Source of the DNA: Catajapyx aquilonaris
Taxonomy: Eukaryota
DNA length: 42,940 nucleotides
Assembly (NCBI GenBank): GCA_000934665.2
Contig: JYFJ02003371.1
Location: 1 to 42,940, forward strand
Reading direction: 5' to 3'
Positions 10,501 to 37,710 of this stretch are shown one piece after another. The position numbers were made by a program, and so were the translations under genes. The number at the start of each line of letters is the position of its first letter. Positions within the stretch are counted from its first letter, which is position 1. The notes beneath the pieces are model-generated. The model made no database searches. It saw nothing but the letters and a program-made list of their open reading frames with translations, and was not told where the DNA came from.

Positions 10501-13500
10501 AGATTTCTGCTTTCAATATGGCTGCAATATGCACTACTACAAGACTACATGCCGATTAATGAAATCTGTCAAAAATGTAATATTAGCTCACCCAAAAATT
10601 ATGAAGGATCAAAATTTCCGAAATTTTCTTCTGCCGTCTTCTTTGTGCAAATTTTGTGCCTGGAAAACTATATTTTCCCACCGAGGGCCAAGAAATGGTA
10701 TGTTATACCCAAGGTGAGGTGTGAAAATGAGTCCGTTAATCAGGAGTAAAATGCACAGGGCCTTATGGAAGCATGCCGGGACCGGCCTTCATAACCAAAA
10801 GTCTGCATAAGGCTGCTTTATCCGGATTCAACTGTAATAATAAGTACAATCCGCTCACCCCAGAGATTTCGCTAACCCAGAGATTTCGCTAACAATATGG
10901 CGAGGTGTAAATAGGAATTGACATTGCTAGGTGGTGGAATCAGGAACAAATGAGGTATTTGACGGAGAAAAAAATCATAACTTAAATCCTGCAGCAGGTG
11001 GAACTGCGAGGTTTTGAACACAGATCCACACCGTCCTATTGACGGAGAAGGAAAACCCGGAAAAATTTACCTTGTTGTTTTAGGTTGTTTGGTCTTGCAA
11101 TAGGGACTACCGTCCCTACAATATTCGAATTTTCCAAATGCGTGCGGAACAGTGCCTGTTCGCATGGCAACAGTCAGCCATTGTTGATGCCATTGGCACC
11201 ATTGGTATTGTTGAAATGTCATTTGGTTGCCTTAGTTTAGTATTGTGTTGACAGGTTGCTACTGCAACAACAAATGACAATGCCATATGGAAGCAGGTTG
11301 CATGAAAACATGGGTACGAAATGGGTGATCGCAGGACAGACAAACAGACTTTACCTTTTGTAACAATACAGATAACAGTGGCAATGGGGTATGGTCATCG
11401 AGACTAATGTGCATGTTGTTCATATTCATTTGTAACGTGAAGAGGTGAAGGTCACCACGGAATATACGGCAGCTTCCCCGAGAAATCACCTAAATTACCT
11501 CCCAACTTTCCCTTCCTACAAACAACGTACTCTCACCTCAAACCCAACAACATCCCATACGAAAACATCCTTTCCCTCTCCTTGGAGAAGCAGAATAAAA
11601 AGGGGGAAGCTGCCGACCAACAAGGTGAGAGTCAGAGTCAAGCCGACCAGCAAGAGACACTCAAGCACTCGTCACTCGAGGGGCTCGGGGACTCATCACT
11701 AGAGACCTCGAGTCAGAGGCACTGACACGGTTACGGTTGTGGTGGTGTACGTGTGATTGTACCTGCTGTGCTGAGGACAGAATTAAATGACATTTAGAAA
11801 GCAACCTCCCGTCTCTGATAATTCACCGGAAAGTGCCCCTCCCGGCCCGTTGTGGCCCGGGCACCTTACCTACGTCTCCCTGACCCAACCCTGTCCAACC
11901 ACCCCCCTATCCCAACCATCCCCCATCCTTATCCCACCTTCCCCCATTTGTCACGTTACACATTGCATACCCGGAGCGTTCGAAAATTGATCATGTAAAT
12001 GGGCCTTGACTGTGTACCTGCTCATTGTTTTGCAACTGGAAGTAATTACTGACAATTGACAATTCTTTACCCCTCTCACTCCATTCACAGACTGAGTCGC
12101 AGCCGGAGCTAGAGCATGTCAACTTGAAGGTTGTGGGGCAGGATGGCAGCATCGTTCAGTTCAAGATCAAGAAGCACACCCAGCTGAGGAAGCTCATGTC
12201 CGCTTACTGCGAGCGCTCCGTCAGTATCTCCAGTTGTTATCTCTGATTTGACATTTGCATTTTTGTTTTTTTTTGGTTGTTTTTTTTTGGCTGTGCGGTA
12301 GTAAAAATACTGTAGCTCAAGATGGCTCTGAATGAGATCTGATGAAGCAGGCCCACTGTCAGTTTGTGCTGTACTGTACAGCTATGGAAAGCAACCAACA
12401 GTGATTGGTACTTGTTTATTATTACAACCTGGTCTTTGCACGGCCTGTTTCCATGGTAATGTAATCAACAGCTGTTGTTAAAGTCATACTAATGTACGGA
12501 AGATGAGAGAACGATCTGACGTCACCAAAGGTTTCCAAGGAAACACCCTCACCGAACAATAGGAGTAAACAGTGTCGACAAAAAAGCAACAATGGAAGAA
12601 GCGATGACGTCAGATCTTTCTCACGTTTTCCGTACATTATATATTTTTCTAGCATCCCATAGTTAAAGGGGAAGGCCCTTTTCATGCAAACAAACATACC
12701 CCCAAAAAATGTATTATCTCAATTTACTGTTTGGTTTGGGAACTATTGTGAATTTATGACCCCCCAGTTCAAAAATTCAGCAACTAATTATTAGGCAAGC
12801 ATATCTGTGTTAACATGTCGGCAGGAATTGCTAGAAAGTCTTGTCCCATGTGTCCACAATAATTCTTACGCAATTTTTTTGTCAGTTATGGCACCATGGT
12901 AAGTGTCAAATATTTTTGCGTGGCACCTAGTTCATATTTTTCATGATTAATAAGTCATTTCACAACAAAAAAAATTAATATTCCCTACAAAATGCTCTAC
13001 CGTATTTTTACAACTGTGCGGCATTCATATTTGGTAAAACAAAAATTGCTTTTGAACCACTTTGGGTGCATTTACATATTGGCAAATTTTCTGACCAAAC
13101 TTTATTTTTTGGCATAAACAATATTTTAAAGTTATTATCATTCAGATTATTATTATTGTTGTTGTTATTATATGATTGCAGCCGCTTGAACTACTATACT
13201 TGCACAGACATGACCAAAAAACCCGAAATTTGTCACATGTGAATGACCTTTTGTGGCAGTGACTTCTGCAATCTCATTGTTAGCAACAAATTCTGCGCAG
13301 ACTTGCATTAATTATGTACATTAAAATTTTGCAGATGCATTTGTCTGGCCCAGTGCTGCATTGATTTTGGATAATTTCCGCGATGATCTTATGACGTGAT
13401 CAATTTGCAGGGCCTTGCTGTCGGGACGGTTCGCTTCAGATTTGATGGGCAGCCGATCACTGACACGGACAGTCCGACCTCCCTGGAGATGGAAGACGGC

Positions 13501-13548
13501 GATACCATCGAAGTCTTCCAGCAGCAGACCGGTGGACGGGCGCTGTAA
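7552..13548 (+). CDS. SUMO: Small ubiquitin-related modifier (SUMO2/3-type, Smt3), 96 aa; exons 7552-7575, 12091-12219, 13411-13548
   Basis: Spliced product: [96 protein letters not shown]. Both introns are phase-0 GT-AG, and AATAAA lies at ~13775. Exons 2-3 are unambiguous; exon 1 was assigned from the ATG context, donor site and size. Confidence 0.95.
8327..8587 (-). mobile_element. tRNA-derived SINE with a V-domain-like core, in SUMO intron 1
   Basis: Minus strand: A box (ggtggcggagtggtta), B box (aagttcgatcccc), core gttctctccgtgttcgcgtgggttttctcggggttctcccgtttcctccc, then a (TTA)n tail. TSD taacaaga at 8319-8326 and 8588-8595. Confidence 0.88.
8697..9901. mobile_element. Non-autonomous foldback/DNA element with ~160 bp inverted termini
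   Basis: 8697-8856 (...gtaagacctctgtggcggaatgaaagtactgaaacaaggcaggcgcacgtaagaccttcaccaattgatttaagctgtacc...) is the reverse complement of ~9746-9901. A diverged partial copy of the arm lies at ~8155-8220. Confidence 0.7.
9911..10399. mobile_element. Possible piggyBac-like non-autonomous element
   Basis: The ends ttaaacccattcgcaatacc and ggtagcgaaggggttaa are imperfect inverted repeats bounded by TTAA. There is a subterminal gccatcgcc / ggcgatggc match. Confidence 0.45.
10405..10834. mobile_element. Tc1/mariner (pogo/Tigger-like) MITE
   Basis: The ends TA-cacttgaatccagataaaaca and gctttatccggattcaactg-TA are imperfect TIRs with TA flanks. Confidence 0.6.
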
Positions 13549-13916: not shown

Positions 13917-14277
13917 CCCCAGCTCAAGCCCATCGTCGTCGTGAAGGCTGTTGGTATGGATGGCAGGGTCATGAGGTTTAAGATCAAGAAGACCACCTGC
14001 CTTGGACGCTATAGGTGGCTAGTCTATTGTGGCGTGCATGTCAGTATCTCTCGCTGACCCATGAATGGTTTCTCATGATAAAACCAATTTATAGAGGCTG
14101 CCACAGCACCAGCTACGCTTCCTGTATGATGGCTGTCACATCAACCAAGCCGACACTCCCCTCTCCATGGACATGCGTGAGGGAGACACCATTTGCGTCT
14201 TTGAAGAACTGATCAGGGGCATTTTGACAGCTGCTGTGAATGTTCAGTGTGAGGTTCACAGGTTTGATTGTCACTGA
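13917..14277 (+). CDS. SUMO-like unit 1: duplicated exon 2 + exon 3 pair (13917-14039, 14095-14277) with no evident own first exon; alternative SUMO 3' exons or pseudogene
   Basis: PQLKPIVVVKAVGMDGRVMRFKIKKTTCLGRYRWLVYCGVH|RLPQHQLRFLYDGCHINQADTPLSMDMREGDTICVFEELIRGILTAAVNVQCEVHRFDCH*. The frame is open, the GTCAGT donor and intron position match SUMO, and LIRG replaces QTGG. The first acceptor (AAG) is weak. Confidence 0.7.
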
Positions 14278-14974
14278 CGGCTAATATAGTCGCCCATCCA
14301 ACATTAATCTTACACCTGTCAGCCTACGTATGTGGAAAAAGCTCAACCTGATGAGGATGTTGCAGCAAAAACAGACACGTGCACATAGCGTGAAAGGAAT
14401 GGATGAATCAGAATTTTGTGCGTGTGTTACTGTGGTGAATAAGTCAATTTTCAAGATTTTCCCGAAGATGTTGCGCATCAAGACCATTTATTTTTAGGAT
14501 TGTAGCCTGGCAAATAAACTGTCGTGAAAACTTGCCTATACCTGGTGGCGACCCCAGAATTTGTTGCATCGGAGAGTTTGAGTGGGGAATCCTTTACACA
14601 TGAAGACATACAAAACACTATTGCACTGCTTTTCACACTGTTTTAAAGACTCGGTCACGTTTTATATTATTATTGACTCATTAAGATTTATGTGAGCTAT
14701 GTTGTTATACGTGGCATTTCAAAATTTAATCATGTAAATTGGGAGGTAAAATATTAAATTATCACATGCTTGGGTCAGCCCCACGATAATACTATTGGAG
14801 TTACATTATTGCTCAGATTGACGATAACAGCTACAACTTGTATCACCGAGATGTTAATTTGGGCCCTCTGACTGTATCCGCTCCGTACAGTACTGTACGG
14901 AGAGGTATACTGAGAAAATACTATATACTACATAACTTAGCATACAGTATTTTTCCATTTTAGACTTTTTCTCA

Positions 14975-15365
14975 TTATACGTTTTCTCATTTAACTTATT
15001 CGACTTTTTCTCAATTAAAATTATACCCTTTCTCATTTAAAATTAGACGTTTTCTCATTTAAAGAAGTTATAACGGCTGTCTGTCTGTCTGTGAACAGGT
15101 ATCAGGGCATAAACCACCAGAGATAGCGGAAAACGGTTTTCGGATTCGGATTCAGCATGGCCAACATAGATTTCATGGCCAACTTCCGGTGACCGTCCAC
15201 TTCCGGTTTTCAGGGTCCACTCCTCTTATCATCCAAGGTCAAATCTGCATGCTTTAGGAACCCATTTTCCTTAGGTTGGCAACGAGAAATAAGACTTGTT
15301 GTCCTGCTGGCAATGAGAAAAAAGTATACTCGAATCGCACCCGAGTGATTTGACAAATGTTGGTT
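14975..15365 (+). mobile_element. DINE-1/Helentron-like non-autonomous element
   Basis: Repeated ttatac(cc/g)tttctcatt subterminal motifs, a (ctgt)n microsatellite at ~15078, and an inverted copy aatgagaaaaaagtata at ~15312 followed by a short hairpin (aatcgcacccgagtgatt). Confidence 0.55.
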
Positions 15366-15430
15366 GGTACTACATCATAGTTTAATTATTTTACGAAAGG
15401 AAATACGACGTCACATATTACGCTGCACTT

Positions 15431-15500
15431 TGCGCATGCGCGCGTCCCCAGCCTCGGTGCTGCCGTCTATAAGCTGAGCGAGCTGAGCTTTTACATCTCA
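15431..15500 (+). promoter_or_regulatory. Putative TATA-type promoter of SUMO-like gene 2
   Basis: TGCGCATGCGC (NRF1/Ewg-like) at 15431 and TATAAG at 15468, about 110 bp upstream of the ATG at 15576. Confidence 0.45.
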
Positions 15501-15575
15501 CTGACTCACTTAGTGAGACTGAGGAGGTGTGTCTGCTGCCCCTGTCTGCACCAGACAGAGACAAACACAGCAACA

Positions 15576-16134
15576 ATGAGCCGCTTCCTGGTGGGCTACA
15601 AGCAACTAGCCTTAGTGAGTATATACAGGGTGTGTCATATAATAAGGTTCGGTCACACATGCGGAGAAGGTCACACTTTATGTAGAGGTGTCGTTTGGTC
15701 TGAAGCCTTGCTAATGCACATATCATTCCCACTCTAGTGTATAGTAAGTGATGAGGAGCCTGCTGAGTCTGAAAAGGTCGTGATAACTGTCTATGACAGG
15801 ATGGGTGACGGGGTGGCCTATACGGTGAACAGAACTGTGAGGTTTGAGAAGATCATTGCTCATTACTGCAACTTTAATAAGGTCAGCATCCGCTTATTCT
15901 GTCTCCTGCATGCATCAGGAATTTGTTTCTGCGATGATTTAATCCTGCTATTTTTTTCCACAGAAAGTGCCAATGTCCCACATTCGCATGGAGCGCGGTG
16001 CGCAGCAGATTGCTTTGACTGACACCGTAGCCTCCTCGGGTTTGGAGGATGGAGACTTCTTTGAGATTCACCTGCTGATGGACCCGACTGACAACATACG
16101 TCTAGAGGGATCTCCAATGTCACGTCAGGCTTAA
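15576..16134 (+). CDS. SUMO-like gene 2, single highly divergent domain, 117 aa; exons 15576-15614, 15738-15881, 15964-16134
   Basis: MSRFLVGYKQLAL|CIVSDEEPAESEKVVITVYDRMGDGVAYTVNRTVRFEKIIAHYCNFNK|KVPMSHIRMERGAQQIALTDTVASSGLEDGDFFEIHLLMDPTDNIRLEGSPMSRQA*. It has SUMO's exon structure and phase-0 introns, AATAAA at ~16406, and no di-Gly. Confidence 0.8.
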
Positions 16135-16850
16135 GTGGGCGCTGCAACGGTGCATTGGTCGATCCTAGCTGCACCATGCACGACTCTAACGTTTCACTCT
16201 AGTTATTATACGGGTGCTAATTGCTGTCTGCGTGAGCCTATAGATTCTCTGAGAACGTCGAAGAGAAGTTGTGCAATGTTGGCATAAACGGACTCAGAAT
16301 CTATGTATTTTCTTATTGTTGTTTTGGACGTATTCCAAAGATCTCATTCCCATTTTGTATTCCAATGTTTCCATTATTTTTTTTTTAAAGAGCTGATTCA
16401 TGACCAATAAAATGTTGCCAAAGATGTCAATTATTATTCCTTGAAACTAATGCATCTAGAACTACTCATTGTGATGTCGGTTGTCAAGTCAGGCATATGG
16501 GTTATAATATAAATTTCAAATTCACACACATTTCATATTTCATGTGACGATTGCATCAATTGTTTGTAATTGAACAAATGCTAAAATTTAAATGAAGAAG
16601 CTTTGTCAACAAAATGTCCGTACAGGCTGCGGACAGGTATTTGCTCAATAATTGTTAAACTTGCACAGCACATTTCATATGAATATGACTGCATCGTCAG
16701 TACCAGGTATGTCAATCATCATCACCATCACCATCACGACATTTCATTCCCTATAAGGGGTAGTCAGCGATGACGGAAGCCGTAAGCTAACCCAAAATAT
16801 GAACAACCGGTATGTAATTGCAAAAAATGCTAAAATAATTTTAGCGTATA

Positions 16851-17131
16851 AGAGGCGCAAACATTCGATTTTCGCGTCTCTCTGTTTGGGGTGTTGACAA
16901 GGCTGGCGGCCATCTTGAAGTGTGGGGAACGCCAACGAGGTATAAATAGGGCCATCGCGCGTGTTCTTGCCGTGTAGTTGCCATGGCCGCCAAAACCATC
17001 AAAGATGGCGGACCCTATTTTTGCCTGTACCCTATTTATACCTCGTTGGCGTTCCCCACACTTCAAGATGGCCGCCAGCCTTGGCAACGGCCCCAAACAG
17101 AGAGACGCGAACATCAAAGTCGTTGGGCCTC
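16851..17131. mobile_element. MITE family B, copy 2
   Basis: Same TIRs as 6665-6960, with a degraded right end. Confidence 0.8.
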
Positions 17132-17569
17132 GTCAGAAACTGGAGTTATTTCGGTAGTTAAACTCTAGTTAAATCCATTGCCATTAACCATGGGGGTTAA
17201 TTTTTTGAAATTCCCGGTTCGAGCCGTAGATGTGGCAACACCGCTGGCAATAATGACAAAAAACCCGCAATAATAACTTTCCAATCAATTTTTAACCCCA
17301 ATTAATGACAGCCGGAGGTCCTTGTGTGACCAAATTAAATTAAACAAATTCCATCGAACGTCACCTGTTGCGACAGAGGACCGATTGGCAACGCCGCAAT
17401 GGAACAACGAAGAAGCTCGAGAGGATTCCAGAGCCCGCGTCTCTTTTCCTTTCCTCCAGAGTTCCAGAGAAATTCCTCCGGGATCAAATGACAGGAAGGG
17501 ACCACCAGGGTTCCTGAGGGCATTCCTGAGGGACTGGGGATTTTTGTTCTGGGCACAGGAAGAGCAGCC

Positions 17570-18211
17570 ATGGGCACGACCGGCAATGGCTCGGTGAGTG
17601 CGACATATGCGTCGAAGGGTGATTCAGGGACAATGTAGGCTGCAGGGGGTCATCTATTACTAATGGGAGGGTCATTATGTCACTATGGGTGTCGATTGGG
17701 CTAGGTTTGGCCTCCTGAGGGTCGACAACAAGGGATTAGTAGGGGTCAATACCAAAGGTCATTGACCGGGACACGTCAGGTGACACTTTGATAAAATTAG
17801 AATTGGTTCCAAAAATGTCAAAAAATGCTCTTTCATTTTGTCCTGAAGGGCTTCATACATGTGGTGCCTGAGTCGGAGTACATCACCATATGCGTGTATG
17901 ATCTGGACGGCAGTTGCGTGATGTTCAAGATGAAGAAGACTATGCAGTTTAGGAGGCTCATGTTGTGGTACACTAACCGTGCGGTCAGTATTGCCGTCGC
18001 ATCGTTTTGATGGATTTAATAAGACGGAATGAATTTACAGGGGGTGTCGATGTCCAGCCTCTGCTTCGAGCACAATGGTCAGCGCATCGGCAAGACCGAC
18101 ACTCCTCTTACCTTGGGCGTGCAGGATGGAGATTCCTTTGTCGTGAACCTCTTGAGGCATTGCGTGTGGACTGGAGACGCCATGGAATTTACTATGCATC
18201 GTGGCGACTAA
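17570..18211 (+). CDS. SUMO-like gene 3, single domain, 109 aa; exons 17570-17593, 17849-17983, 18041-18211
   Basis: MGTTGNGS|GFIHVVPESEYITICVYDLDGSCVMFKMKKTMQFRRLMLWYTNRA|GVSMSSLCFEHNGQRIGKTDTPLTLGVQDGDSFVVNLLRHCVWTGDAMEFTMHRGD*. The 24-nt first coding exon is the same length as in SUMO. Confidence 0.85.
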
Positions 18212-18730
18212 AGACAAGTTCCGAGAGGGGGGGCGCTCTACATGGTTTTTCACTCTCGTTTTTTGTATGCGAATGACAATCTTCTGGCTGTGAGCCTGGA
18301 TCCTGAGGAAGCTCATGATGTTCACGGGAAGAAGGCAGTGTTTGAAGAAGCATCTTGCCACCCTTTTTATTGTTATTTTGGAAGACTCACTTTCGATGAT
18401 CTCATTGAGAAGTTTTGTATGCCAATTTTTAAAAAGCTGAATCGTGACCAAAATAAAACGGTTAATGGTTATTGTTTGTCAACTAAAATTAACAAACCCG
18501 TTCGAAATATTCAGGAATATCAGTCGTGCCCGAGGTCGTGCCATGATGGCGTCAATGATTGTTGTTGGTTACAATGCTATGGAAACAGGCTGTGTTTGTT
18601 TGCTTGTTTGTCCATGGCAACCATTGCGCAAACACAAGATGCAGATGAGATTCATCTCCTTTACGTTGCCCAATAATAACCTATCTTTAGCAGTTCATTC
18701 AACGGACATAATGGGCAACCAAGTCGCTAA

Positions 18731-18842
18731 AGGCCGGTATCAACGTACGAGATTCTCGCATACGCATGCCCAGATACGAGAAAGTTGAAATATATTTCAA
18801 CTTTCTCATATCTGGGCATGCGCAGTTGGCTCCCCGCGGCTT
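18731..18842. mobile_element. Internally deleted copy of the 3696-3870 MITE
   Basis: taa-aggccggtatcaacgtacgagattctcgcatacgcatgcccagatacgagaaagttgaaa...gcgcagttggctcc matches the first copy. Confidence 0.75.
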
Positions 18843-19392
18843 TAACAATGAAAGTTTTGTGACCTCAGTACGCTTTTATTGCAAGGTCAGATTGTATCGC
18901 ATTCAAGAAAAACAATGAGAAAAACAAGAAAACAGGCGTGTTATCCCCCCCCAAAAAAACCAGATTGTTGACGCCAATTAAATTCCAACCATGCGAAAAC
19001 TTATCTTGACATTCCCGCAATTCTTGCCATGATTTTGCGAAGTGGCAATGCTGCACTAAATTACGTAACAAACTTTTAGCCACTGCACTGTGTGGCATGT
19101 TTATAACAATAATTGATTGGGTATTCGGCTAACCCCATGCATGTTTATAAAAACCTTTATTTACAGCAGGAAATTGTAAATGATAATGAAAAGTAAAATT
19201 AGTTCATTTCTTCCTTGTTGTGTAAGCCGATTTGGCAACGCAGTGCATGACTTAAGAGTGCAAAAATTTGCATTCATATGAAACCAGAGAGTGTCCGCCA
19301 AGCAAAGCCGTAATTAGGGTCAGACGGAGGCGTCTCCTGGTTGTACTCTTAGGCCTGACACTGCAGGACATACCATACGAGAAGGCACAACA

Positions 19393-19988
19393 ATGAGCAA
19401 CATGCTGCATTACGAGCAGGATTACGCAATGGTAAGTGTCACATGATGATTTCGAACAAATGGTGTACTCCCTGGGTGATGGAGGATCACTTTATTATGT
19501 GTCGTTTAGTCTCGGATGATAACTAAAGTGTGCTTTTACGTTGCAAAACAACACTACCTGTGAGATAATGTGAATTGTTGCGATTGGGTGATTTTCCGCT
19601 GTATTCGCAGGGTTACGTGCATGTCGACCCAGAGTCGGAGTACGTCTACATCGAGATCGTCTCGGAAAAGGCTGGGCTGCTGGTGCTATTCCGCACGAAG
19701 AAGACCGCACCGCTTCAGGATCTAATGCTGCAGTATTGTGCACAAGAAGTATGTCCACTTCACACCTTCCAGTTGCAATTATGTACACATTAATTTATTA
19801 TCAATTATTTTCAGAGGGTGCTGATGTCCGACATTCGGTTCGAGCTGAATGATCGGCTAGTCAAGGAGACTGATACGCCAAACTCACTGCATATGCAGGA
19901 GGGCGATTCCTTTGATGTTTACCTGCGTACTGACCATTTCGGACCTGGACAGCTGATGGAATTTGCGATGCCCAATGTCCGGGATTAA
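19393..19988 (+). CDS. SUMO-like gene 4, single domain, 116 aa; exons 19393-19431, 19611-19748, 19815-19988
   Basis: MSNMLHYEQDYAM|GYVHVDPESEYVYIEIVSEKAGLLVLFRTKKTAPLQDLMLQYCAQE|RVLMSDIRFELNDRLVKETDTPNSLHMQEGDSFDVYLRTDHFGPGQLMEFAMPNVRD*. The frame is open and the splice sites are canonical. Confidence 0.85.
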
Positions 19989-20076
19989 TCCTACTCACGT
20001 TGTACGCACCTCGACTGTCTGCTGGATTTGTATTCTAGTTACACAGCGATGTAGTAGCGAGCTGAGTCAAAAGAAC

Positions 20077-20636
20077 AGTAAGGTGAAGTGGGGTAAGTGC
20101 ATACACGGGGTAAGTGCATAAACTGGCCGCCATATTGGAATGAAAATGGCTCACATGCTCACCTCTTGTGATGTGCAGCTACACAAAAGAGTGCCTGACA
20201 TGTTTTGGTGTCGTCAGCCATTTTCATTCCAATATGGCGGCCCCGTGTACGCACTTACCCCGTGTATGCACTTACCCCGTGTACACACTTACCCCCGGTG
20301 TACGCACTTACCCCGTGTATGCACTTACCCGGTGTAGGCACTTACCTTGTGTATGCACTTTATACCCCGTGTATGCACTTACCCCGTCTATGCACTTACC
20401 CCGTGTACGCACTTACCCGGTGGAGGCACTTACCCCGTGTATGCACTTACCCCGTGTACGCACCTACCCCGTGTACGCACTTTCCCCGTTTATGCACTTT
20501 CCCCGTCTATGCACTTTCCCCATCTAGGCACTTTCCCCGTCTATGCACTTTCCCCGTCTATGCACTTACCCCGTCTATGCACTTTCCCCGTGTATGCACT
20601 TACCCCGTGTATGCACTTACCCCACTTCACCTTACT
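20077..20636. mobile_element. Foldback element whose TIRs contain a 17-bp minisatellite
   Basis: The left end agtaaggtgaagtggggtaagtgcata mirrors the right end tatgcacttaccccacttcaccttact. There is also an inner inverted pair, ccgccatattggaatgaaaatggct / agccattttcattccaatatggcgg. Confidence 0.8.
20241..20625. repeat. 17-bp tandem repeat (gcacttaccccgtgtat)n, about 22 copies
   Basis: The tandem array is directly visible and explains the repetitive ORFs annotated at 20140-20761. Confidence 0.95.
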
Positions 20637-21402
20637 TTAATGTTCGAAGCGGGAGGAATGCAGGTGGTTTATGCCATATGCACATATATCATGTGCCATT
20701 GTCATTACACGTTACGCTGTCACTTACACCTGAGGGCGTAAGAATTGTTAGGCGTTCATGAGAAGATGCTGCATGTCTATTGTTTGAACGACCAGACGGT
20801 TGACAATCTACTTTTTATTATCTCACCCTTTTGTACTTTACATGTCCATTACTTACAAGAGTTGCATAATTGGTATATTAATAAAATGTTTGCAATAATG
20901 CTGGTGATTGTTCTTGAATCTAAAATGGGCCACATTTTATGCATATGAGTGTTGTACTAATTGCCAAAAAAAAAAAAGTCATCTGCAACAATATTGGCGA
21001 CTAAAATTAGCAATTTTTCAAGACTTTTTTTTGAAACTTCCCGCCTATTATTCGAACACGTTCTATAATCGACATTTGTGGAATAGATATGGCAACGTCG
21101 CAATAACATTTAAGTTCAATAAATGAGAAAATGACAATTTAAACTATCATCCGGAAATTTAATTATAAGCCGTTGATTAATTAATGTGAATTAATTAGAA
21201 CAGTGTTGCCAGGTGTATGCTTCAGATGTGGCAACCCCGTACAATTTCGAACGTGTGGTTCTGGTCAAAGAGCTTTGGTTCTGGTGTTCTAATCCTCTGG
21301 TTCTAATCCTATGTTCCAAAGGTCGTTCCAGGTCAGTTCTCCTTCCCTGTTCTCTGGGCCTGCCTTCCCCTATTACACCGGAAGGACAAGAAGCTGCTGC
21401 CC

Positions 21403-23207
21403 ATGGACCGCATCAACTACGCCAGCAGCAATCATGGCCTGCTGAAGCCTGAGTGGATCAACTTGAGAGTCTTTGGTCGGAATGGCAATATGATATTTAA
21501 AATGAAGAAGACTGTGAAGCTGAACAAGCTGATGGAGAAGTACTGCGAGCGTATGGTCAGAACTTTCACTTTTCTCTTCATGCTAAGTTCCGTAGCACAG
21601 GGTATAACAAATATGGCTTCAAACAAATACACGATCTAGTAGCATGCATCACTAGTTAATGGTCGGTTTCACTGAGCTCGGTAAATGATAAAACCAGGTT
21701 TCTTTAGGAAAATCCCTAATGTTTGTATGGGTTTTCCGAAAGAAACCTGGTTTTATCATAACTCGATGAAACCAGTCCATTTAAAAAAATAATCTGAAGA
21801 TTTCTGCTACAAAATTGCGGGTGTCTGAACTGATGATGACCTCGTGATATCTTCCAGGTTCTATTGAGGTCTGACGTTCATTTCTTGTTCAATGGTCACC
21901 GTATCGCTGGAAGTGATACTCCTGACTCCATGGGCATGAAGGAGAGAGACAACATCAAGGCTGTCGTGCGTTGTCCTGATGGAAGAGAAGGACGTGTCCA
22001 GCGTTTCAGCGCTACAACTAGAAAGGTAGGTCTTTGTTGTCGTTTTTGAGGCCGTCTCAGGGGTCATTTATGCGGAGAACCAAGAAAACTGGACCAGAAT
22101 TTGGTCGATGACAAAGTCGTGTTACCTCACTCCTATGAGAGGACCTCACTCCATCCAGCATTGGAACAAAATTAGTTAAATGATATTTACTCATGTTTTG
22201 CCAGAGTACTTATGCTCCTACTAACTTTTCACATTAAGGCCCATTCACACAGGCCGTCGACGGTTTTGGTCTTTGGTCCGTGGCGTCAATGCGACCAAAG
22301 ACCAAAGCCAGCGACGACCTGTGTGTGTGGGCCTTTATGCGCACATTACTGACAATTGCATTTCTGTTTCTCTGCTCTATCCACAGGATCACCTGAAGCC
22401 TGAGTGGATCTACTTGAGAGTTGGTCGGAATGCCAATATCATATTTAGAATGAAGAAGACTGTGAAGCTTACCAAGCTGATGAAGACGTACTGCGAGCGT
22501 ATGGTCAGAACTTTCACTTTTCTTTGATGCTAAGTTACGTTGCACAGGGTAACAAATATTGCTTCAAACCGGCCCATTTCAATAATAATCTCAAGATTTC
22601 TGCTACAAAATTGTGGTTTACGTGTGACTTGGTCAATAGTTTCTCGAATGAGAATGATTTCTAACCTTGTAATCTTGTGAAATTATTTTTAGGAGCTGTT
22701 GAGGTCCAGTGTTTCGTTCCTGTTCCGTGGCGAGGAGATCCCTGGCACCGCCACACCTGACTCCTTAAACATGAAGGACAGAGATCGCATTGAAACTGTC
22801 AATTCTCTCTCTCGACTCCAACCGAAGAATCACATGGGGTCCGAGAGAATCATCTTGAATGTGTTTGGTGAGGATGGGCTTCTCCTCAAATTTAAATTGA
22901 AGAAGACTACGAACCTTGCCTACTTGATGGATAAGCATTGCGAGCATCAGGTCAGTACTTCCGACATTATTTTTTTCTGATTTGAAGTCACATTTTCAGA
23001 TTTGGTTGAGAGCAATGGTTTCCAGATGGACTTGTCCACGAGTCAATTGGAATTAATCACATGATATATTTCCAGGGGTTGTTGAGGTCCACTGTTCTTT
23101 TCATGTTCAACGGACAACAGATCAAGGATGGCAACACTCCCAGCTCGTTACGCATGAAGGACCAAGATCGCATTGACACTCGTATTTTAAAAGCTCCAGC
23201 TGCCTAG
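21403..23207 (+). CDS. SUMO-like gene 5: three tandem SUMO-like domains, ~275 aa; exons 21403-21555, 21858-22025, 22387-22503, 22693-22950, 23076-23207
   Basis: Domain 1: MDRIN...KPEWINLRVFGRNGNMIFKMKKTVKLNKLMEKYCERM|VLLRSDVHFLFNGHRIAGSDTPDSMGMKERDNIKAV... Domain 2: DHLKPEWIYLRVGRNANIIFRMKKT...YCERM|ELLRSSVSFLFRGEEIPGTATPDSLNMKDRDRIETV... Domain 3: ERIILNVFGEDGLLLKFKLKKT...HCEHQ|GLLRSTVLFMFNGQQIKDGNTPSSLRMKDQDRIDTRILKAPAA*. All exon lengths are multiples of 3. Confidence 0.85.
21660..21779. mobile_element. Short palindromic MITE (family C) in an intron of gene 5
   Basis: ggtcggtttcactgagctcggtaaatgataaaaccaggtttc...gaaacctggttttatcataactcgatgaaaccagtcc. A better-preserved copy lies at 28556-28683. 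Confidence 0.75.
22237..22334. mobile_element. Small MITE with TTA TSD (Harbinger-like) in an intron of gene 5
   Basis: tta-aggcccattcacacaggccgtcg...cgacctgtgtgtgtgggcct-tta. Same family as window positions 1-61. Confidence 0.8.
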
Positions 23208-23829
23208 GTTTGTAGTTCGGTCGGGGTGAGTGATCAATGGTGAACCCTGAACAAGTATTTGGTTGCATCTTGTCATAAAAGGGTTTAGGAATAAACTGGT
23301 ACCAACTATGAATAATGAGGATCAACCACTTGCACAGAATTTATTATTGATCATTGATTTTGCAGTTATTGCGTACGTAGGTCCTAATTAATCTCTCTGC
23401 TGTAACCCTAGGTTTTGTGGAAGTTGAACTGAAGAATTAAGATAAAGAGGATGTGCTCGACTGTTGGAAGGGAATACCATGCCACTTTTGTGTTTCCTTC
23501 CCTCCTTTCCGAGCACTCACTACGAGATCTCAGGTTTCATGAAGTTCATTGTTGTTAACGTTCGAATTGTTCAAATAAAATGTTTTGGAATGGACGTGGC
23601 AATGCTGCAATGAACCACTGCAATTTCCTTTTTAGAAACTTTCAAAAGCCAAATTATTAGCGAGTAAGTGTTGCCAGGTGTCTGATTAGGTTCGGATGTC
23701 GTGGCAACCATCGTTGGAGTCTGTGCTGTCAAACGGAACAGAATAAAGATTCTTTCCAGGTCGGTTCTTCTGTCCCGGGTTTGCATATAATCTGGGCCAA
23801 TGTATGCTTCCACATACGGAAGGACTGCC

Positions 23830-25837
23830 ATGGACCACTCGGGAGGCTGCTGCACCAGGCATGGCTTGAAGACGGAGAGTATCAAGTTGAACGTTGTTGG
23901 ACAGGATGGAAGCACTGTCATGATGATGAGGATGGAGAAGCAGCGAAAGCTTGAGAACCTGATGGAAGCAGTTTGTGTCCGTCAGGTCAGTGTCGCTTTA
24001 TTACCACACTTGCAGCATATAGAATGATTTTTTTGGTATGACTCTCATCATGGTGTTTGCCAATTCCCAGGGGCTGCTGATGTCTGATGTTCGTTTCCTC
24101 CATAATGGTCACCTTATCGATGAAAGTGACACCCCTGCCTCCTTGGGCTTGCAAGAGGGTGACAACATCCGTGTTGTCGTTCGGCCGGGAAGAACGATGT
24201 CCAACATTTCCACATCGGTATACTTCTTGTTCTATTCACGGCTATAATTATGTAGGATACTTTATATTGACACCTGCTGTGCGTCTATTTCCCCATTCCA
24301 TCCACAGCAGTTGGAGCCTGAGAAGATTGTCTTGAATGTCTTGGAGGAGGTTGGCCATCAAAAGATATTTAAAGTGAAGAAGACCGTGAAGCTTATCAAG
24401 CTGATGGAGATGTATTGCAGTATTGTTGTCAGTAATTTCACTTTTTCTCTGATGAATTGAAGTAATATTTTCAGATTTGATTAAGAGCAATGCTTTCCAG
24501 ACTTGTCCGAGTCTGTGTATAGGAACTATTGCAGTCCATTTATTGTAAGGAAGTGATGTGGTTCTGACATGAATCAAAAGGCAAAGCGCTTGTTCTTGGC
24601 CAGTTGTACTGTACAGTACGTCAGTGCGGTACATCTCACTAACAAAATGATTTTTTATTTTAAAATTACCCCAGTTGATCTCAAGATATCTGCTTCTGTC
24701 TGCCTTGCTCAACATTTCCTGGAATTCGAATTATTTCTCATCTCTCATGATTTCCAGGGGCTGTCGAGGTCTGACGTTTGTTTCCTGTTCAATGATCACC
24801 TTATTGCCGGAAGTGACACCCCTACTTCCTTGGGCATGAAGGAGGATGACAACATCCAGGTTTTCTTACGAGTTGGTGTGTCTCTTCCGGAAGGAAATGC
24901 CCAGCGTTTCAAGGCACAAGCTGAAAATGTAGGTTGCTACGTGTAGGTTCCTGTAAATCCTGTTTTGATTTTTTTTTTCTCCGCCATCGGTGATTAAGCT
25001 GTTGACAATATTTTTTTTGCTGACGTGCACTTTTGTTTGTGATTGAAAATAATTTCTTGGACTATGATGGCCACTGGCGATATATTTTCCTTCCTCCGCA
25101 GCATGGCTTATTGAAGCCTGAGTTGGAGAGGATCACGTTAAACATTCTTGGGCGAGATGGCAGCATTCTCATGATAGCAAAGCATCTGAAGCAGCAACAG
25201 CTTCAGAGCCTCATGACAAGATTTTGTGACCATCGGGTCAGTATCACTAGTTTCAGCTTCAACACTGGCTGGAAGGATGATCACATGATGTAATCAATTT
25301 CCAGGGGCTGCTGAGGTCCGATGTTCGTTTCCTCTATAACGGCCACCTTATGATTGAAAGTGACACCCCTGCTTTCTTGCGCATGAATGAGGGAGATTCC
25401 ATCCAGGCTGTCTTACGAGTTGATGTGTCTCCAACAGAAGGACGTGCCAAAGGTTTCGAGGAACAGGCTAAAAATGTAGGTCTTTGTTGCCTTTTTTTTT
25501 AATGTTTGCCACATTTTGTCGTTTATGTAGAGACTTCCTGACTCCATCCACAGAATCACCCTGGAGCATGAGAGTATCACCTTGAATACCTCTTGTCAGG
25601 ATGGCCATCGCATGATTTTTAGAGTGAAGAAGACCGCCAAGTTTATCAAGGTGCTGAAGATGTATTGTGAGCGTCGGGTCGGTACTTCCACATACCTCTA
25701 TCTGATTTTAAGTAGGGCCAATTCCAACATGAAAATTCAAGTACGTTTCTCTCTCTGGCAGCTCCACACCTGCCTCCTTATACATGAAGGACCAGGATCG
25801 CATCGATGTTGTCATTCTAAATGTGCTGGCTGCCTAG
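23830..25837 (+). CDS. SUMO-like gene 6: three intact plus one degenerate tandem SUMO-like domains; exons 23830 (or 23800)-23985, 24071-24217, 24308-24427, 24758-24928, 25102-25236, 25305-25475, then 25531/25554-25677 and ~25742-25837
   Basis: Domain 1: MDHSGG...ESIKLNVVGQDGSTVMMMRMEKQRKLENLMEAVCVRQ|GLLMSDVRFLHNGHLIDESDTPASLGLQEGDNIRV... Domain 2: QLEPEKIVLNVLEEVGHQKIFKVKKT...|GLSRSDVCFLFNDHLIAGSDTPTSLGMKEDDNIQV... Domain 3: HGLLKPELERITLNILGRDGS...|GLLRSDVRFLYNGHLMIESDTP... The 4th domain carries a +1 shift at its homologous acceptor and a deletion in its last exon. Confidence 0.75.
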
Positions 25838-26042
25838 GTTTGTACACTTACAATATATTAGAGGTTCATTGGAGAGGTCACAATGACCAATAATATGACT
25901 GCATGTCAACAGTGTAACCGGAAAAGGGCCAGGGAACGTTTGTTATTCATTGTTGTGAGCATTGTTGGATAGGCAAACTTTTGCGGATTTGGATGTACTT
26001 GTTCTGTGTCCTTCTCATCAGCCTGGGACTCTGGTGAACAGA

Positions 26043-27014
26043 ATGGAGACTTTTAGCAGGAATATTTCCTGGTGTTCACAAGAAACCTTGTCTGCATCTA
26101 GTGTCGAAGCGACTGATGAGGAGGAAGAGTCTTTGGACAACTCATCGGTAGACAGCAACACTGCAGGCGAACAGGACCAGGACCAGCAGGTGAACAGAAA
26201 TGCAATTTCACGAACTTTGACGACTATTGTGTATCCCCCCCACACTTAATCCACAGCCTGACTTGAAGTCGGAGTTCATCGAGTTCAACATTGATTTTTC
26301 GGACGACAGCATGATGGAAGTGGAGATGAAGAAGACCGCGCGGTTTAAGAAGCTGAAGGTAGCTTTTTGTCGCCGTCTGGTCAGTATCACTACCGCATAT
26401 CTTGTTGATCACATGAATCCGATGCAGAACTCTGAAAGCAATGATTTATGTGATGATGTGCTCAACTTCCAGAAGCTGTTGTGGTGTCAGGTCCATTTCC
26501 GGTTCAACGGTCGCGCTATCTTTGGAGGTGACACCCCAGCCTCCTTGGGCATGAAAGAGGGCGACTACATCAAGGCTTTCATACAGGTGATTGAGGCTAG
26601 ATTGTGATTATAGATTATTTCCAGGTATATTATTGACAATAAAGGTGATTTTTTTCCCCTTCTGCATCTGCAGGATGTTGAGAAGGAGGAAGTGGAATAT
26701 ATCCACCTGAAAATCATGGAGCAGGATGGGGAGCATTTGAGGGTCAAGATGCCGTGGATTGTGGATTTTGGATGGGTGTTGATGGCATATTGCGATGTTA
26801 GGGTCAGTACTTTGCACTTTTCTGTGATCTGAAGTAGAAACATTTTGTCGGCTCATTATATTATTGTCAGGATCTGCAGACGTCCGATGTTTACTTCACC
26901 TTCCGTGGCCAGAAGATCCTCGACAGCTCCACACCCGACTCCTTAGATATGAAGGACAGAGACAGGATTGAAGCTGTCATTCTAAACCCGCAGGACGCAA
27001 GTGCCGAACAATAA
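26043..27014 (+). CDS. SUMO-like gene 7: acidic Ser-rich N-terminus plus two tandem SUMO-like domains, ~218 aa; exons 26043-26189, 26257-26379, 26473-26586, 26674-26802, 26871-27014
   Basis: METFSRNISWCSQETLSASSVEATDEEEESLDNSS...QDQQ|PDLKSEFIEFNIDFSDDSMMEVEMKKTARFKKLKVAFCRRL|KLLWCQVHFRFNGRAIFGGDTPASLGMKEGDYIKAFIQ|DVEKEEVEYIHLKIMEQDGEHLRVKMPWIVDFGWVLMAYCDVR|DLQTSDVYFTFRGQKILDSSTPDSLDMKDRDRIEAVILNPQDASAEQ*. AATAAA lies at ~27129. Confidence 0.85.
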
Positions 27015-27658
27015 GACCAGTGGTTTCAAATGACAACAATGCACGGATCAACCACACTCTTATTGTTATGATTTATTTGGAGGGAGTCATTTACAAAGAT
27101 ATGATTGTGTATGCCCATCTTTACTTTTAATAAATATGCGGCTTGAAACCTAATGATGTTTATTGCTTGGAGACACTAAAGTACCTGACAGGGTTTTTTA
27201 ATTATTCGTTTTATGAAATATATGTAATGGCTGTATTGTAGAGGAGGCGGAAAAATGTGTTGTGAAACATTGTTGCCCCGGCTAACAATGACCTGAAAAG
27301 GACTTGAACGAACTTGTTTTAAGATATTTGAAACTTTATTTCCCGCTTATTTCGAACAATGTTCCAATAATTGACATTCGATGTGGCAACACCGCAATCG
27401 CATACCTCTTCGTCAAATTTTTTTTTTAAACAAATTATAATTTAAGCACCAGCATTAGCTCCAATCATTCCGTTGATTAATAATTAAGGCATAATTAACA
27501 ACTGGATGTTAAATATTATTGCAATAGTGCTGACTGTTATGTGGCGATTTGACAACCCCGCAGCGGGAGCATTCGATTCTTGTTCATGTCTGGGCAGAAC
27601 AGGCCAGAGGTCATTCCAGGTCACCTCTTTTTCCTAATTGCCTGGTTCTGGTGGTGAA

Positions 27659-29769
27659 ATGGAGACCTTCTCTGATGATATGTACTTGGCTCTGGAGGAA
27701 TCCCTGACCGCTGCTGCTTCCACGCACGATGGTGGCTCATCATCCATGGACCACTCTGCTGCTGGAGGCAACACTTCTGCAGCTGGACAGGTGATGAAAC
27801 AAGTTCTTATTAGAATATGCCGGCTACATATATAATAAGGTTACATTTATTGAGAGGGCAAGTCCTGGTCCAGCAGCCACACCTTCCCTAATACTACCAC
27901 ACACATATTCCTATCCCTCACCGCCACATCACCTCCTAGAGCAGCCCAAGAACAAAGCCAAGTCTGTTATCTATGGATGATGTAATCATTTGGAGACACT
28001 CAAGGGAGGAGGAGGACAATGGCATTGACTGGGAAGCAACCAGTTGATTTCCTCAGACTGCGGATGATGGGCTGCTCGGGTTGGCTGCACGGTTTAAATC
28101 AAGTGTTTTTTATTTTTTTTAAAAACCATCATGGTTTTTTAAAATGAAAAGTAATCCCAATTACTGCTAAAATTCCCCTTCCAAAGCTGAAGGGGAATCC
28201 CCACGTTCCATGGGAAATCCCCTTTAGCAATATCCAATCATACAGTGGTTATTGCCTGGTGTGCTGAAGCAAAGAGCTGTTTGTGAAATTTAACGGAAGA
28301 GCATAGACCGGTTTGGCTAAGTTTAATATATTGCTGGTAGAAAACGTGATATATTGTTTGGATGTCATTTGATGAAGTTAAAAAAAGAAGCGAGAAAAGG
28401 TGTAAGGGCCAAATTATGTAAAAAAAATGGGCCAAGTAGCCAGAATGAAAAATCACCTATCAAAATGTGCATATCGTCGCTGGCAAGGAAAATGCCGTGA
28501 TTGTATGCAGGTAATGTATGTATATTGTATAGTCATTTATCATTTTATCTTTTATAGGGCCGGTTTCACCGATCTCGGTATATGATAAAACCAGGTTTCT
28601 TTAGGAAAATCCATACAAATATGTAGGGATTTTCCGAAATAACCCTGGTTTTATCATATACCGAGCTCGATGAAACCGGCCCTTATAGTGTTTAAATCAT
28701 TCATAAGGCTGCTGGAGGCATAGAAGACAGACTGTTAGTGCTTTTTGAACTTAGGTTAAAAGTTAAGTTAATTAGTTTTATACAATGCCACTATTTTGTT
28801 ATTTTGTTTACTTGTATTGAAACATTTAAGCGACATTTCTGTGTGAAATCTCTACATTGTAGTTTTCAAAATTAATACCATATTTTGAGATGAAGCTTTC
28901 AATTTGCTGAATAATTATAATTTTGAGCAAGATATACATTTTCTTAATCAAAAGTATAACTTATTATTTACCTCACTATGAGTTGGGAATGGGCATATGT
29001 AGATGATAAGAAGTCACAACTTGTTTAAATGAATTTAAACCAAAAATTTGAAATTAAACCTGGTTTAAACAAAAAAAAAACTGTTCTTTTTCCAACCCCT
29101 AGCTCTTGTCCGAGTTGCAAGCAGTCTGAAAATTGGCAATGCTTTGCGATTTATGTTTATATGTGCAGTTTGTTGTTTTGTGGTGAAATGCATCAATGTA
29201 TGACTCCGCTTCTGTCCTATGTTGCGGGTTTCAAAGCATTGGTGAGACGTTCGCAGGTGGTGGCAATTGCATATAAAAAACTCGAACAACAGCGGCATAT
29301 GCTCAGGAAGGAACACCCCTGCTCTTGCATTTTTAGTGTCATTTTTTCCTGTTTTGCCGTAGGATTTCTTCTCTGTACACTCCTATAACTTGCTCCTACT
29401 ATTATTATTGACACTGGTATCACATTTGCAGGATCACCTGATGCCTGACACTCTCCTGTTGCATATCCTGGGGCCGCATGATGGCCTTCAAATTGGATTT
29501 AAAGTGAAGAAGACCATGAAGCTTGCCGAGATGGTGGCAGTGTATCGCAATGTTTGTGTCAGTATACTTCTTTTTCCCTGATTTTCATACAGTCGGCTAA
29601 GAGTTTCCAGACCGACGCTTATTGTAAATCTCAATCTATTTAACAGGGAAGATCCGACATTTCCTTCATGTACTGCTCCCGGGAGATCACCGACAGCTGC
29701 ACTCCTGCCTCATTACACATGAAGGACCAAGACCAGATTTTTGCTGTGCTGAAACAGCAGGCCATTTAG
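27659..29769 (+). CDS. SUMO-like gene 8, N-terminal extension plus single domain, ~126 aa; exons 27659-27790, 29432-29557, 29647-29769
   Basis: METFSDDMYLALEESLTAAASTHDGGSSSMDHSAAGGNTSAAGQ|DHLMPDTLLLHILGPHDGLQIGFKVKKTMKLAEMVAVYRNVC|GRSDISFMYCSREITDSCTPASLHMKDQDQIFAVLKQQAI*. Exon 1 is homologous to gene 7 exon 1 (METFS); its joining across the 1.6 kb intron is inferred. Confidence 0.75.
28556..28683. mobile_element. Palindromic MITE family C with TAT TSD
   Basis: tat-agggccggtttcaccgatctcggtatatgataaaaccagg...cctggttttatcatataccgagctcgatgaaaccggccct-tat. Confidence 0.8.
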
Positions 29770-30410
29770 GTCCGTATAAGCAACGTGCTTAATTGATCTT
29801 CACTTAATTTCTCTCTCTAATTACACAGCTCATGAGGAGTAAGCTGGACATGTCCGGCATGTCAGAATAAGGAACTGAGCAAGATTTTTTGTTAATTAAA
29901 ATATTTTGTTTCGGATTACGCGCACGTTCGCTTTTAGGTAATGTTGACTCTAGTGGTATGGTAGCTTATAAGGGTCCAGTGTACGTATGGCAGTACTTTT
30001 GACACACAATACAGTTATAGTTGCTTAATAAATAATAATAATCAAACTCGAAATTCGCGCTGCACGAGTTGGCAACATCGCAACTTACATAACTGTGGCT
30101 CGCACTAGTTCGTTTACAAAATTAATTAATCGATAAAACGGGCTCGTTCCATAAGGTGAGATTAAATTAATTAAATATATATATATATATTTTTAAAAAA
30201 CGGGTTCGTGGTTGCAACTTGGCAACGCCGCAGTTTCGTCATTTCGTTCTATGCCGACGAGTTAAAAAAAAAAAAAAAACATCTTGGAGAGGAAATTCCT
30301 GGAATCCAAAAATCCAGCTGGAAATCGGGGCCTGAACCTCTGGTAAATACTGGTGATCAACAGGAGAGGTCAAGAGGAGCACCGTGCAAGCCCCAGCAGA
30401 CAGCGGAACA

Positions 30411-31385
30411 ATGGCCAACTCCGTGGTGATCAACGCCACTGGCAAACACACCGCAACGGTGAGTACGCACCCTGAAGTACTCCGCATGCGACTAACTGAT
30501 GCAAATTGGCCAATAAATCAATGCCTATCTTTCCCCAGCTGATTTTCCTACATGGACTTGGCGATACAGGGTAATAGTGCGTACATAATTCATTGTCGGG
30601 GGCGGAAAAGCTGACGGATTTATTTGGTTGCAGGCACGGCTGGGCCAGCACCATGGCCATGGCTAGGCAGCCGCACGTCAAGGTCATCTGTCCGACAGCG
30701 TAAGTATTATTGACCAACAAAAAAAATCAATCGATTACCTAACCGGTTTTCCATCAGTCCGACAATGCCAGTGACCCTGAATGCGGGTTTCCGGATGCCC
30801 TCGTGGTTTGACCTCCGCACGTTGGATGCTTCCGGGCCTGAGGATGTGGATGGGATCAAGAAGGCGACGGATGTTGTGCATCAGATGATAGACGAGGAGG
30901 TGAAGAAAGGGGTGCCGTCGGAAAGGATCGTGCTCGGAGGGTTCTCTCAGGGCGGAGCGTTGGCCTTGTACTCGGCCTTGCGCTACCCGAGGAGGTTGGC
31001 CGGAGTCGTTGCGCTCTCGTGCTGGCTTCCGCTGCATAAGGAGTTCCCAGCGGTTAGTTTGCGCAGAGTACGTAACCTGACACGATAATTTCCGCTTTGT
31101 TTTGCAGGCTGCTTTGGGCAATAAAGATATCCCGTTCATGCAATGCCACGGGGACTGCGACCCTGTTGTTCCGTATCGTTGGGGCCAGATGACAGCCTCG
31201 GTTCTCAAGCAGTTCCTCAAGCAGCTAGAGTTCAAGACCTTCCAGGGGATGATGCATTGCTCTTGTGATGAGGTGAGTTGTAGTGCACGATATGCACAAC
31301 AGGCAAATGAATTATCTGCTGGTTTTCTTTGCAGGAAATACGCGACATGAAGACCTTCGTCGAGAGGTGTGTACCTGCGGTGTAA
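30411..31385 (+). CDS. Apt1: Acyl-protein thioesterase 1 / lysophospholipase (LYPLA1/2 family), 218 aa; exons 30411-30458, 30539-30570, 30634-30699, 30758-31052, 31108-31272, 31335-31385
   Basis: [31 protein letters not shown]...[23 protein letters not shown]...[12 protein letters not shown]...[11 protein letters not shown]...[25 protein letters not shown]. The GFSQG nucleophile and the catalytic Asp and His are present. The six exons splice in frame. Confidence 0.95.
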
Positions 31386-36851: not shown

Positions 36852-37126
36852 TCATACCCCGTTATCAGCCTATCGGCTCTTTAGGGGGGAAGTTTTGTTT
36901 TGCCTGGAACTTTTCGCTTTTTATTTTACTGTGGTCTTTGGGATAGGATAGGGAAGGAAGGAAGCGGCTGGGGCCTATTAATTACGGAAGCAACTCCGGA
37001 ATTTTCCTGGAAGGACCGTGGGAAACCACAGAAAAGCACGGTCAGAGTTGCCGGCACCGGGATTCGAACCCAGGACCTCCCGATTAGCAGTCGGACGCCT
37101 TATCCACTATGCCAACCTGCTTCGGT
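36805..37126 (-). mobile_element. tRNA-derived SINE family A, copy 2
   Basis: (AAT)n tail on the + strand, B box gggttcgaatcccgg on the - strand, and TSD tattttagtggttata on both sides. Confidence 0.92.
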
Positions 37127-37428
37127 ATTTTAGTGGTTATAAAAAAAGTATTAGCTGTATACAAAAGTTTTAGCACTTTTGGCACTATAATAAGGTGCTT
37201 ATCAAACAGTTACTATTATAGCAGTTAACAGAATCAGTATAGCTATGATGCAAAAGTAGCTACAAGAGTAGATTACTAAGCTGCTTTATGAAGCAGTTGC
37301 CTTTAGAGGTTATCAAAAGTATTAGCAACTAACAGTGTTAGCTATGAAAAAGTATTAGCATTATTGGCACTAACGTAAGCTGCTCCGAGCAGTTACTTTG
37401 GAATGGCTATTTTAGTTATTGGATTAGC

Positions 37429-37710
37429 ACCGAAGCAGTGCGGTGGTGGAGGGGATATGGTATCCGACTGCTAATCGGGAGGTCCTGGGTTCGAATCCCG
37501 GTGCGGGCAACTCTAACCGTGGTTTTTCTGTGGTATCCCACGGTTCCTCCAGGAGAATTCCGGAGTTGTTTCCTAAACTATTAGGCCACAGCCGCCTCCT
37601 TCCTTTCCTATATCCTATCCCAAAAAGCGCAGTAAAAACGAAAACGAAGAGTTCCAGTCAAAACAAAAAATATCCTCCCTAAAGAGCCGCCGGCTGATAA
37701 CGGGGTATGA

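Follow-up and report, generated by a model that had tools for sequence, protein, structure and literature searches.

A SUMO-like domain array behind a SUMO2/3-type gene

The window analysed here is the whole of contig JYFJ02003371.1 (42,940 nucleotides, labelled C1726) of Catajapyx aquilonaris, part of a 286 Mb eukaryotic assembly. On its forward strand, 3' of a canonical SUMO2/3-type gene, lie 14 SUMO-like domains (u1-u14) at 13917-29769, and this canonical gene is the likely parent of the array (Table 1). The same phase-0 intron splits each of the 14 domains, and none of them carries a C-terminal di-glycine (GG). According to phase checks, u1-u4 are predicted to be separate genes of one domain each, u5-u7 to form one gene of three domains, u8-u11 one of three to four and u12-u13 one of two, with u14 standing apart. 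The second half of u11 is frameshifted and its FDG loop is deleted. The top single-domain match of the window's canonical SUMO in the PDB was Drosophila Smt3, with human SUMO2/3 also among the top matches. Residue positions are given as Smt3 numbers, following the residue table of PMC5319795.

The array domains belong to the beta-grasp fold closest to SUMO. Rad60-SLD matches were obtained for 21 of 27 exon queries at E values up to 1, and the PDB sequence matches were SUMOs. A model of u12 built from a 44-row alignment, with the intron retained in frame, adopted a SUMO fold and matched SUMO chains, an outcome favoured by the alignment itself; folding u12 from its single sequence failed, at a pLDDT of 47. 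Ratios of nonsynonymous to synonymous substitution rates (dN/dS) were estimated with a purpose-written GY94 likelihood over 71 aligned codons of the 14 domains, the intervals being conditional on fixed branch lengths. The ratio was 0.42 [0.33-0.52] for the core, 1.36 for the surface that binds SUMO-interacting motifs (SIMs), 0.90 for the surface facing the E2 enzyme Ubc9 and 0.88 for other positions. Neutral evolution would be expected to leave about 34 nonsense changes; the aligned codons contain none, and u11 is the sole frameshifted domain. The fold is under selection and the surfaces are largely not conserved.

The descent of the domains was examined in a DNA tree of 22 rows, comprising the 14 window domains, five intact domains from contigs C2167, C6013 and C3533, two canonical SUMOs and one copy from C2504, and leaving out broken copies and those of C1169, C8948 and C3185. 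All 19 paralog domains fell on one side of a branch (94/96), and u1 was set apart as sister to the other 18 (85/89). Fifteen of the 19 central introns start with GTCAG, as in the canonical SUMO of the window, while the canonical SUMO on C158 starts with GTAAG. The common duplicated ancestor proposed by the first-pass annotation is thus borne out by the tree, the shared intron and the donor. Since SUMO1 carries T at position 42, a SUMO1 origin was also considered. It was ruled out by intron layout and not by the protein tree: two additional introns of the SUMO1 gene on C139 are absent from the array, whereas the array and the window SUMO share exon layout and donor. Membership in the SUMO1 type by descent fails on the same ground. 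The C2504 copies were likewise rejected as SUMO1-like, their donor matching the window SUMO and no grouping with SUMO1 rows being seen.

Surfaces facing Ubc9 and SIM peptides

The motif (F/V)-(K/R/E)-x-KKT was found in 10 of the 14 domains (u1, u3, u4, u5, u6, u7, u9, u11, u12 and u14), the same count as in the first-pass annotation. Its statement that T replaces the SUMO His in the KKT domains was confirmed, with T at position 42 in 11 domains overall; u2 reads NRT, u8 and u10 have Q, and u13 has I. As evidence of ancestry, however, the shared T is weak when taken alone, because T is the commonest residue at this position in other SUMO-family domains (79/233) and Smt3 itself reads K40 K41 T42 T43 (PMC5319795). 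At position 68, the Asp of FDG is present only in u1 and is replaced by N in eight domains, R in two (u6 and u13) and C in one, or deleted in the frameshifted u11, states that had all been described; in our alignment u2 has G, which had not been listed. The acidic patch reported to become MKERD or MKDQD does change charge, E84 being K or R in 8 of 13 domains. MKERD itself occurs once (u5), MKDRD twice (u6 and u13) and MKDQD in u7, u14 and, out of frame, u11, and an acidic residue at 85 and D87 are kept in 13/13. Since the copies share descent in the DNA tree, 10/14 and 12/13 represent one or two events rather than a dozen. From tip states and the tree alone, the simplest reading is that H changed to T once, before the spread of the array, and D to N once, after the split of u1.

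These changes fall on a known contact. In SUMO1, E67 and residues 83-86 contact R17 and K18 of Ubc9 (PMC12687455), the E67 loop contact agreeing in PMC9191277, and the mutation D68R abolishes or impairs contact with the back of Ubc9 (PMC7849368). Both u6 and u13 carry R at 68, as in this mutant, and the canonical Ubc9 of the genome (on C421) retains R17 and K18. At the sequence level the acidic class II face for back binding was not found in the array: positions 68, 82, 84 and 90 are acidic in 1, 2, 1 and 5 of 13 readable domains (D68 1/13, E82 2/13, E84 1/13). Acidic residues of the canonical (host) SUMO stay acidic in 22/65 cells on the E2 face and in 43/67 elsewhere, with five positions per side and no significant test. 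K27 is basic in 4/14. As an internal contrast to the array, the NIP45-like domain of the same genome (on C76), which is also GG-less, retains FDG. The lost acids and the known mutant together support the earlier claim of disengagement from the back of Ubc9, and the array has likely lost its Ubc9 back-binding face.

A similar pattern was seen outside the genome. The comparison set came from 149 of 150 listed matches (one repeat protein was dropped), with 283 domain matches, 242 complete enough and 233 distinct; the matches were drawn by a paralog query carrying K84 and R68 and are biased toward paralog-like residues. Position 68 was acidic in 43/101 GG-less versus 116/132 GG-bearing domains and position 84 in 46/101 versus 115/132, and D87 was retained in 94/101 GG-less domains. 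Of the 56 proteins with a GG-less domain, 18 had N68 and 24 had K or R at 84. Fungal and plant poly-SUMO-like proteins were among ten matches looked up. Over 23 non-core positions, the retention profile of the array correlated with that of unrelated GG-less domains (rho 0.73), the array showing the greater loss at the E2 face (position 68, 0.08 vs 0.43) and no better retention of its SIM face. This pattern of residues recurs where conjugation has been lost, which suggests a general rule: after that loss the acids facing Ubc9 disappear first, and the core and D87 stay.

On the SIM-binding face, K38 is basic in 12/14 domains, K40 in 10/14 and K47 in 8/14. The basic residues of this face are still basic in 36/56 cells, compared with 25/68 for other basic positions of the host SUMO, and all four are present in u3, u5, u6 and u11 (4/14). 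Positions 40, 41 and 42 belonged to the purifying class in both site-model runs (posterior >0.9), and the dN/dS of positions 38, 40 and 41, a set picked after seeing the data, was 0.48. Part of this agrees with the proposal of the first-pass annotation that the paralogs keep SIM binding and disengage from the E2 machinery. On that model the family, with canonical SIM binding kept, would serve as a sponge or scaffold for SIMs that is no longer coupled to E2, for which UAF1 SLD2 (PMC4835495) offers a precedent. The remainder of the groove makes that proposal rather unlikely. T43 is retained in 2/14, A51 in 3/14, R55 in 6/14 and position 36 in 0/14. Of the KKT residues, K40 alone is in the structure-based SIM contact list of PMC5319795, which lacks K41 and T42; T42 mutants of Smt3 had no notable defect there, and T43 is a SIM contact. 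Identity to the host SUMO was 0.36 at the seven SIM surface positions versus 0.32 at other non-core positions (permutation P = 0.32), and identity among paralogs was 0.23 versus 0.35, in a comparison whose non-core class includes some partly buried positions and is biased against kept SIM binding. The groove as a whole is therefore no better conserved than other surfaces, which the first-pass annotation had itself named as evidence against its proposal, and retained SIM binding is unsupported family-wide. For a minority of copies (u3, u5 and u6), binding of a SIM-like kind is plausible.

Site models suggest positive selection in the array. The run on a single tree favoured M2a over M1a at p = 0.0015 and the run with one tree per exon at p = 0.04; positions 50, 51 and 56 were flagged in both and 55 in one; 51 and 55 belong to the SIM face and 50 and 56 to the same helix. 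These flags, and the fast turnover of copies on five or more other contigs, are consistent with the copies being decoys that mimic SUMO and are aimed at SIM proteins or proteases of viral, parasitic or selfish-element origin, the groove being driven to diversify. The signal weakens, however, once the exons have separate trees, and it comes from 71 codons with naive posteriors and gene conversion outside the model; we consider such a conflict unlikely. Another feature is an LLRSD-like motif at positions 58-62 of u5-u13, after the helix, which is unlike SUMO and conserved among the copies. It is a candidate for a new binding or packing surface.

On balance we favour the reading that the array evolves by birth and death as a family of folded modules, which are non-conjugatable, have escaped from interfering with Ubc9 and have diversified the face turned to their partners. 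The array would have arisen by duplication of the adjacent SUMO2/3-type gene, with later turnover through tandem duplication, head-to-tail fusion, dispersal and loss, and the copies would be translated as non-conjugatable interaction modules. An engineered GG-less SUMO2 that binds the back of Ubc9 inhibits poly-SUMOylation (PMC12687455). A free GG-less SUMO still gripping the back of Ubc9 would likewise dampen chain formation, so that loss of the face may have let the copies persist without poisoning the pathway. With the beta-2 edge still basic and the helix side of the SIM groove diverged, each copy probably has a peptide-binding edge of its own specificity, and the two- to four-domain products would provide avidity in the manner of a ready-made SUMO chain.

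Several observations weigh against this reading, the bias of the comparison set among them. Taken as a whole, conservation of the E2 face (0.28) does not fall significantly below that of other surfaces (0.32, P = 0.38), and its dN/dS is the 0.90 given above; relaxation therefore explains the loss of acids as well as selection against binding does. The loss is also incomplete, since D87 and the acidic residue at 85 are fully retained and u1 keeps both D68 and D82. In the 13 proteins with both GG and GG-less domains, the contrast was weak at position 68 (5 vs 3), while it was 8 vs 0 at 84. The overall dN/dS of 0.84 is indistinguishable from 1 (p = 0.11). Finally, protein trees with outside SUMOs reject neither origin (approximately unbiased test, p = 0.45 for SUMO1-type rows and 0.27 for host SUMOs).

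The surface dN/dS near 1 would also fit a constraint on the fold alone, under which the surfaces drift and KKT persists through a purine-rich splice enhancer beside the unusual GTCAG donor. GAAGAA repeats act as splice enhancers. The sequence GAAGAAGAC, found nine times under the KKT codons, lies at a fixed distance of 52 bases before the donor, and GAAGAAGA is located 52 bases before the donor in 9 of 10 KKT units; neither occurs in the two canonical SUMO genes. The Lys codons at 40-41 are AAG in 28/28 cases versus 61/80 elsewhere (nominal p = 0.003, a value inflated because the copies are related). A DNA-level cause for the persistence of KKT is thus possible. Other columns, however, are also near-fixed at the third position (13/14 at 24 and 16/17 at 65), units without the motif have the same donor, and the retention of many folded copies is left unexplained. 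We regard this fold-only account as quite improbable.

Other SUMO copies and variant Ubc9 proteins

The genome contains two SUMO2/3-type genes and one SUMO1 gene, together with 19 or more GG-less domains and four variant matches to Ubc9. Further copies lie on C2167, C6013, C3533, C2504 and C8948, several of them broken. A second copy of u14 on C10815 differs by one synonymous change in 249 coding bases with many changes in the flanks, a comparison of low power.

The variant Ubc9 matches share 85-92% identity among themselves, and some of them could be haplotypes. Against the canonical exon their identity is 61%, and against the canonical Ubc9 on C421 it is about 65%. Those on C6549, C1281 and C2056 were examined; they retain the catalytic Cys and have a basic back face (R13, R17 and K/R18), with a dN/dS of about 0.25 against the canonical protein. 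All three lack two residues after the Cys as well as one Asp, which we take to be the counterpart of human D127. In the C6549 variant, an in-frame start codon is missing from the first exon that matches. Of ten matches to a Ubc9 motif pattern, nine were not Ubc9. These variants, their conserved catalytic Cys and low dN/dS, the divergent GG-bearing SUMOs on C1169 and C2504, and the class II SCE1-SUL co-evolution proposed in plants (PMC7194008) would fit a second SUMO sub-pathway in which array copies pair with variant Ubc9. The basic back face of the variants nevertheless offers no complement to the basic or neutral face of the paralogs, and compensation by variant Ubc9 was ruled out because of it. 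In addition, the array members lack di-glycine, and a single match to the ubiquitin-like (UbL) domain of Uba2 exceeded the cut-off. Such a sub-pathway appears very improbable. A broader scheme, which we find doubtful, would be a private, rapidly evolving SUMO side-system that converges on DSUL and class II SCE1 of cereals. It would combine genetically encoded decoys of one to four SUMO units, blind to Ubc9 and with a SIM-groove helix under positive selection against foreign SIM proteins, with conjugatable SUMO variants and a family of variant Ubc9 proteins whose active-site loops are altered.

Around the array, candidate short upstream exons before u12 and u14 were noted at 27560-28050 and 26040-26190, acidic in the first case, and a unit of about 20 bases is tandemly repeated at 20240-20630 between u4 and u5. 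A lysophospholipase/acyl-protein thioesterase-like gene follows directly behind the array (about 30400-31385, +). Elsewhere in the window are exons of the C-terminal domain of POP1, an RNase P/MRP subunit (4759-5738, +), and repeats resembling short interspersed nuclear elements near 2050-2300 and 36880-37660.

Table 1 Features of the array and related loci. Positions without a contig label refer to the window.
Feature	Position	Strand	Description
Canonical SUMO2/3-type gene	12091..13548	+	exons 12091-12219, 13411-13548; KKHT, FDG, di-glycine; first exon unlocated
u1	13917..14277	+	exons ending 14039 and 14095-14277; KKTT; FDG Asp present; no di-glycine; 5' end unlocated
u2	15576..16134	+	greatest divergence among the single-domain genes (26% identity to host SUMO); 15576-15614 a candidate start exon
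u3	17849..18211	+	single domain; all four SIM-face basic residues; N at 68
u4	19393..19988	+	single-domain gene; three-exon in-frame model
u5-u6-u7 gene	21403..23207	+	three domains; all junctions phase 0; R at 68 in u6
u5-u6-u7 exons	21403-21555, 21858-22025, 22387-22503, 22693-22950, 23076-23207	+	
u8-u9-u10-(u11) gene	23830..25838	+	multi-domain; u8 and u10 without KKT; weak u8-u9 donor
u12-u13	26257..27014	+	two-domain in-frame model; alternative u12 end 26607; u13 without KKT, R at 68
u14	29432..29769	+	C at 68; two-residue deletion opening second exon
GAAGAAGAC, nine copies under KKT codons	17932..29514	+	at 17932, 19697, 21504, 22452, 22899, 24376, 25626, 26328, 29506
Second canonical SUMO2/3-type gene	C158:26968-29598 (L027)		84% identical to that of the window over the domain
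SUMO1-type gene	C139 (L044:3547-4119)		two further introns inside the domain
Divergent SUMOs with di-glycine	C1169 (L045:4300-7217), C2504 (L003, L029, L030)		
SUMO1-like copy	C3185 (L046:2756-3124)		no central intron
Dispersed copies of u5-u13 block, one of u2-u4 class	C2167:61200-68900, C3533:2900-6300, C6013:434-868, C8948		several frameshifted or insertion-interrupted
Variant Ubc9 matches	C6549:2043-2797 (L055), C1281:1606-2365 (L057), C2056:4229-4835 (L056), C4763:406-660		

Comparison with known SUMO-like systems

In invertebrates, SUMO is usually regarded as nearly invariant and encoded by one gene or a few. Insects are described as having one or two SUMO genes (PMC4866545). No animal SUMO-like array of this kind was found in the literature searched, a coverage that leaves out most subscription papers. 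The points deserving attention are the expanded, diversifying family and the variant E2s that surround it, and the array can be regarded as a natural mutagenesis series of SUMO surfaces.

With canonical SUMO2/3 the array shares the fold, core residues, central intron and basic beta-2 strand, but it has 26-45% identity, lacks di-glycine and is altered on the Ubc9 back face and on the helix side of the SIM groove. The RENi proteins NIP45, Rad60 and Esc2 also have tandem non-conjugatable SUMO-like domains (PMC7849368); however, their SLD2, which follows a long N-terminal region, retains the acidic contacts and binds the back of Ubc9. The array is not a RENi member, its contact being lost, its genes short and the NIP45-like gene of the genome being separate on C76. 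UAF1 SLD2 (PMC4835495), on which the idea of retained SIM binding is modelled, cannot be conjugated and binds SIM-type peptides, but it resides within a large conserved protein, whereas the array domains are free-standing, fast-evolving and known from sequence. The variant Ubc9 proteins resemble class II SCE1 of cereals and peanut (PMC7194008), a variant E2 that carries a deletion close to the active-site Cys and occurs beside extra SUMO-like genes; the deletion here is of two residues and of independent origin, in proteins likewise predicted from the genome.

The closest described system is the DSUL/GSUL2 cluster of grasses (PMC6680281), a tandem SUMO-like cluster with head-to-tail concatemers, lost di-glycine and active turnover, all of which have counterparts in the array. 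The likeness is one of analogy and not of homology. In contrast to DSUL/GSUL2, the array has an independent origin in an animal, all its domains lack GG, and its likely SUMO2/3-type parent is still adjacent. A pattern of non-conjugatable tandem SUMOs known from cereal plants is thus present here in an animal.

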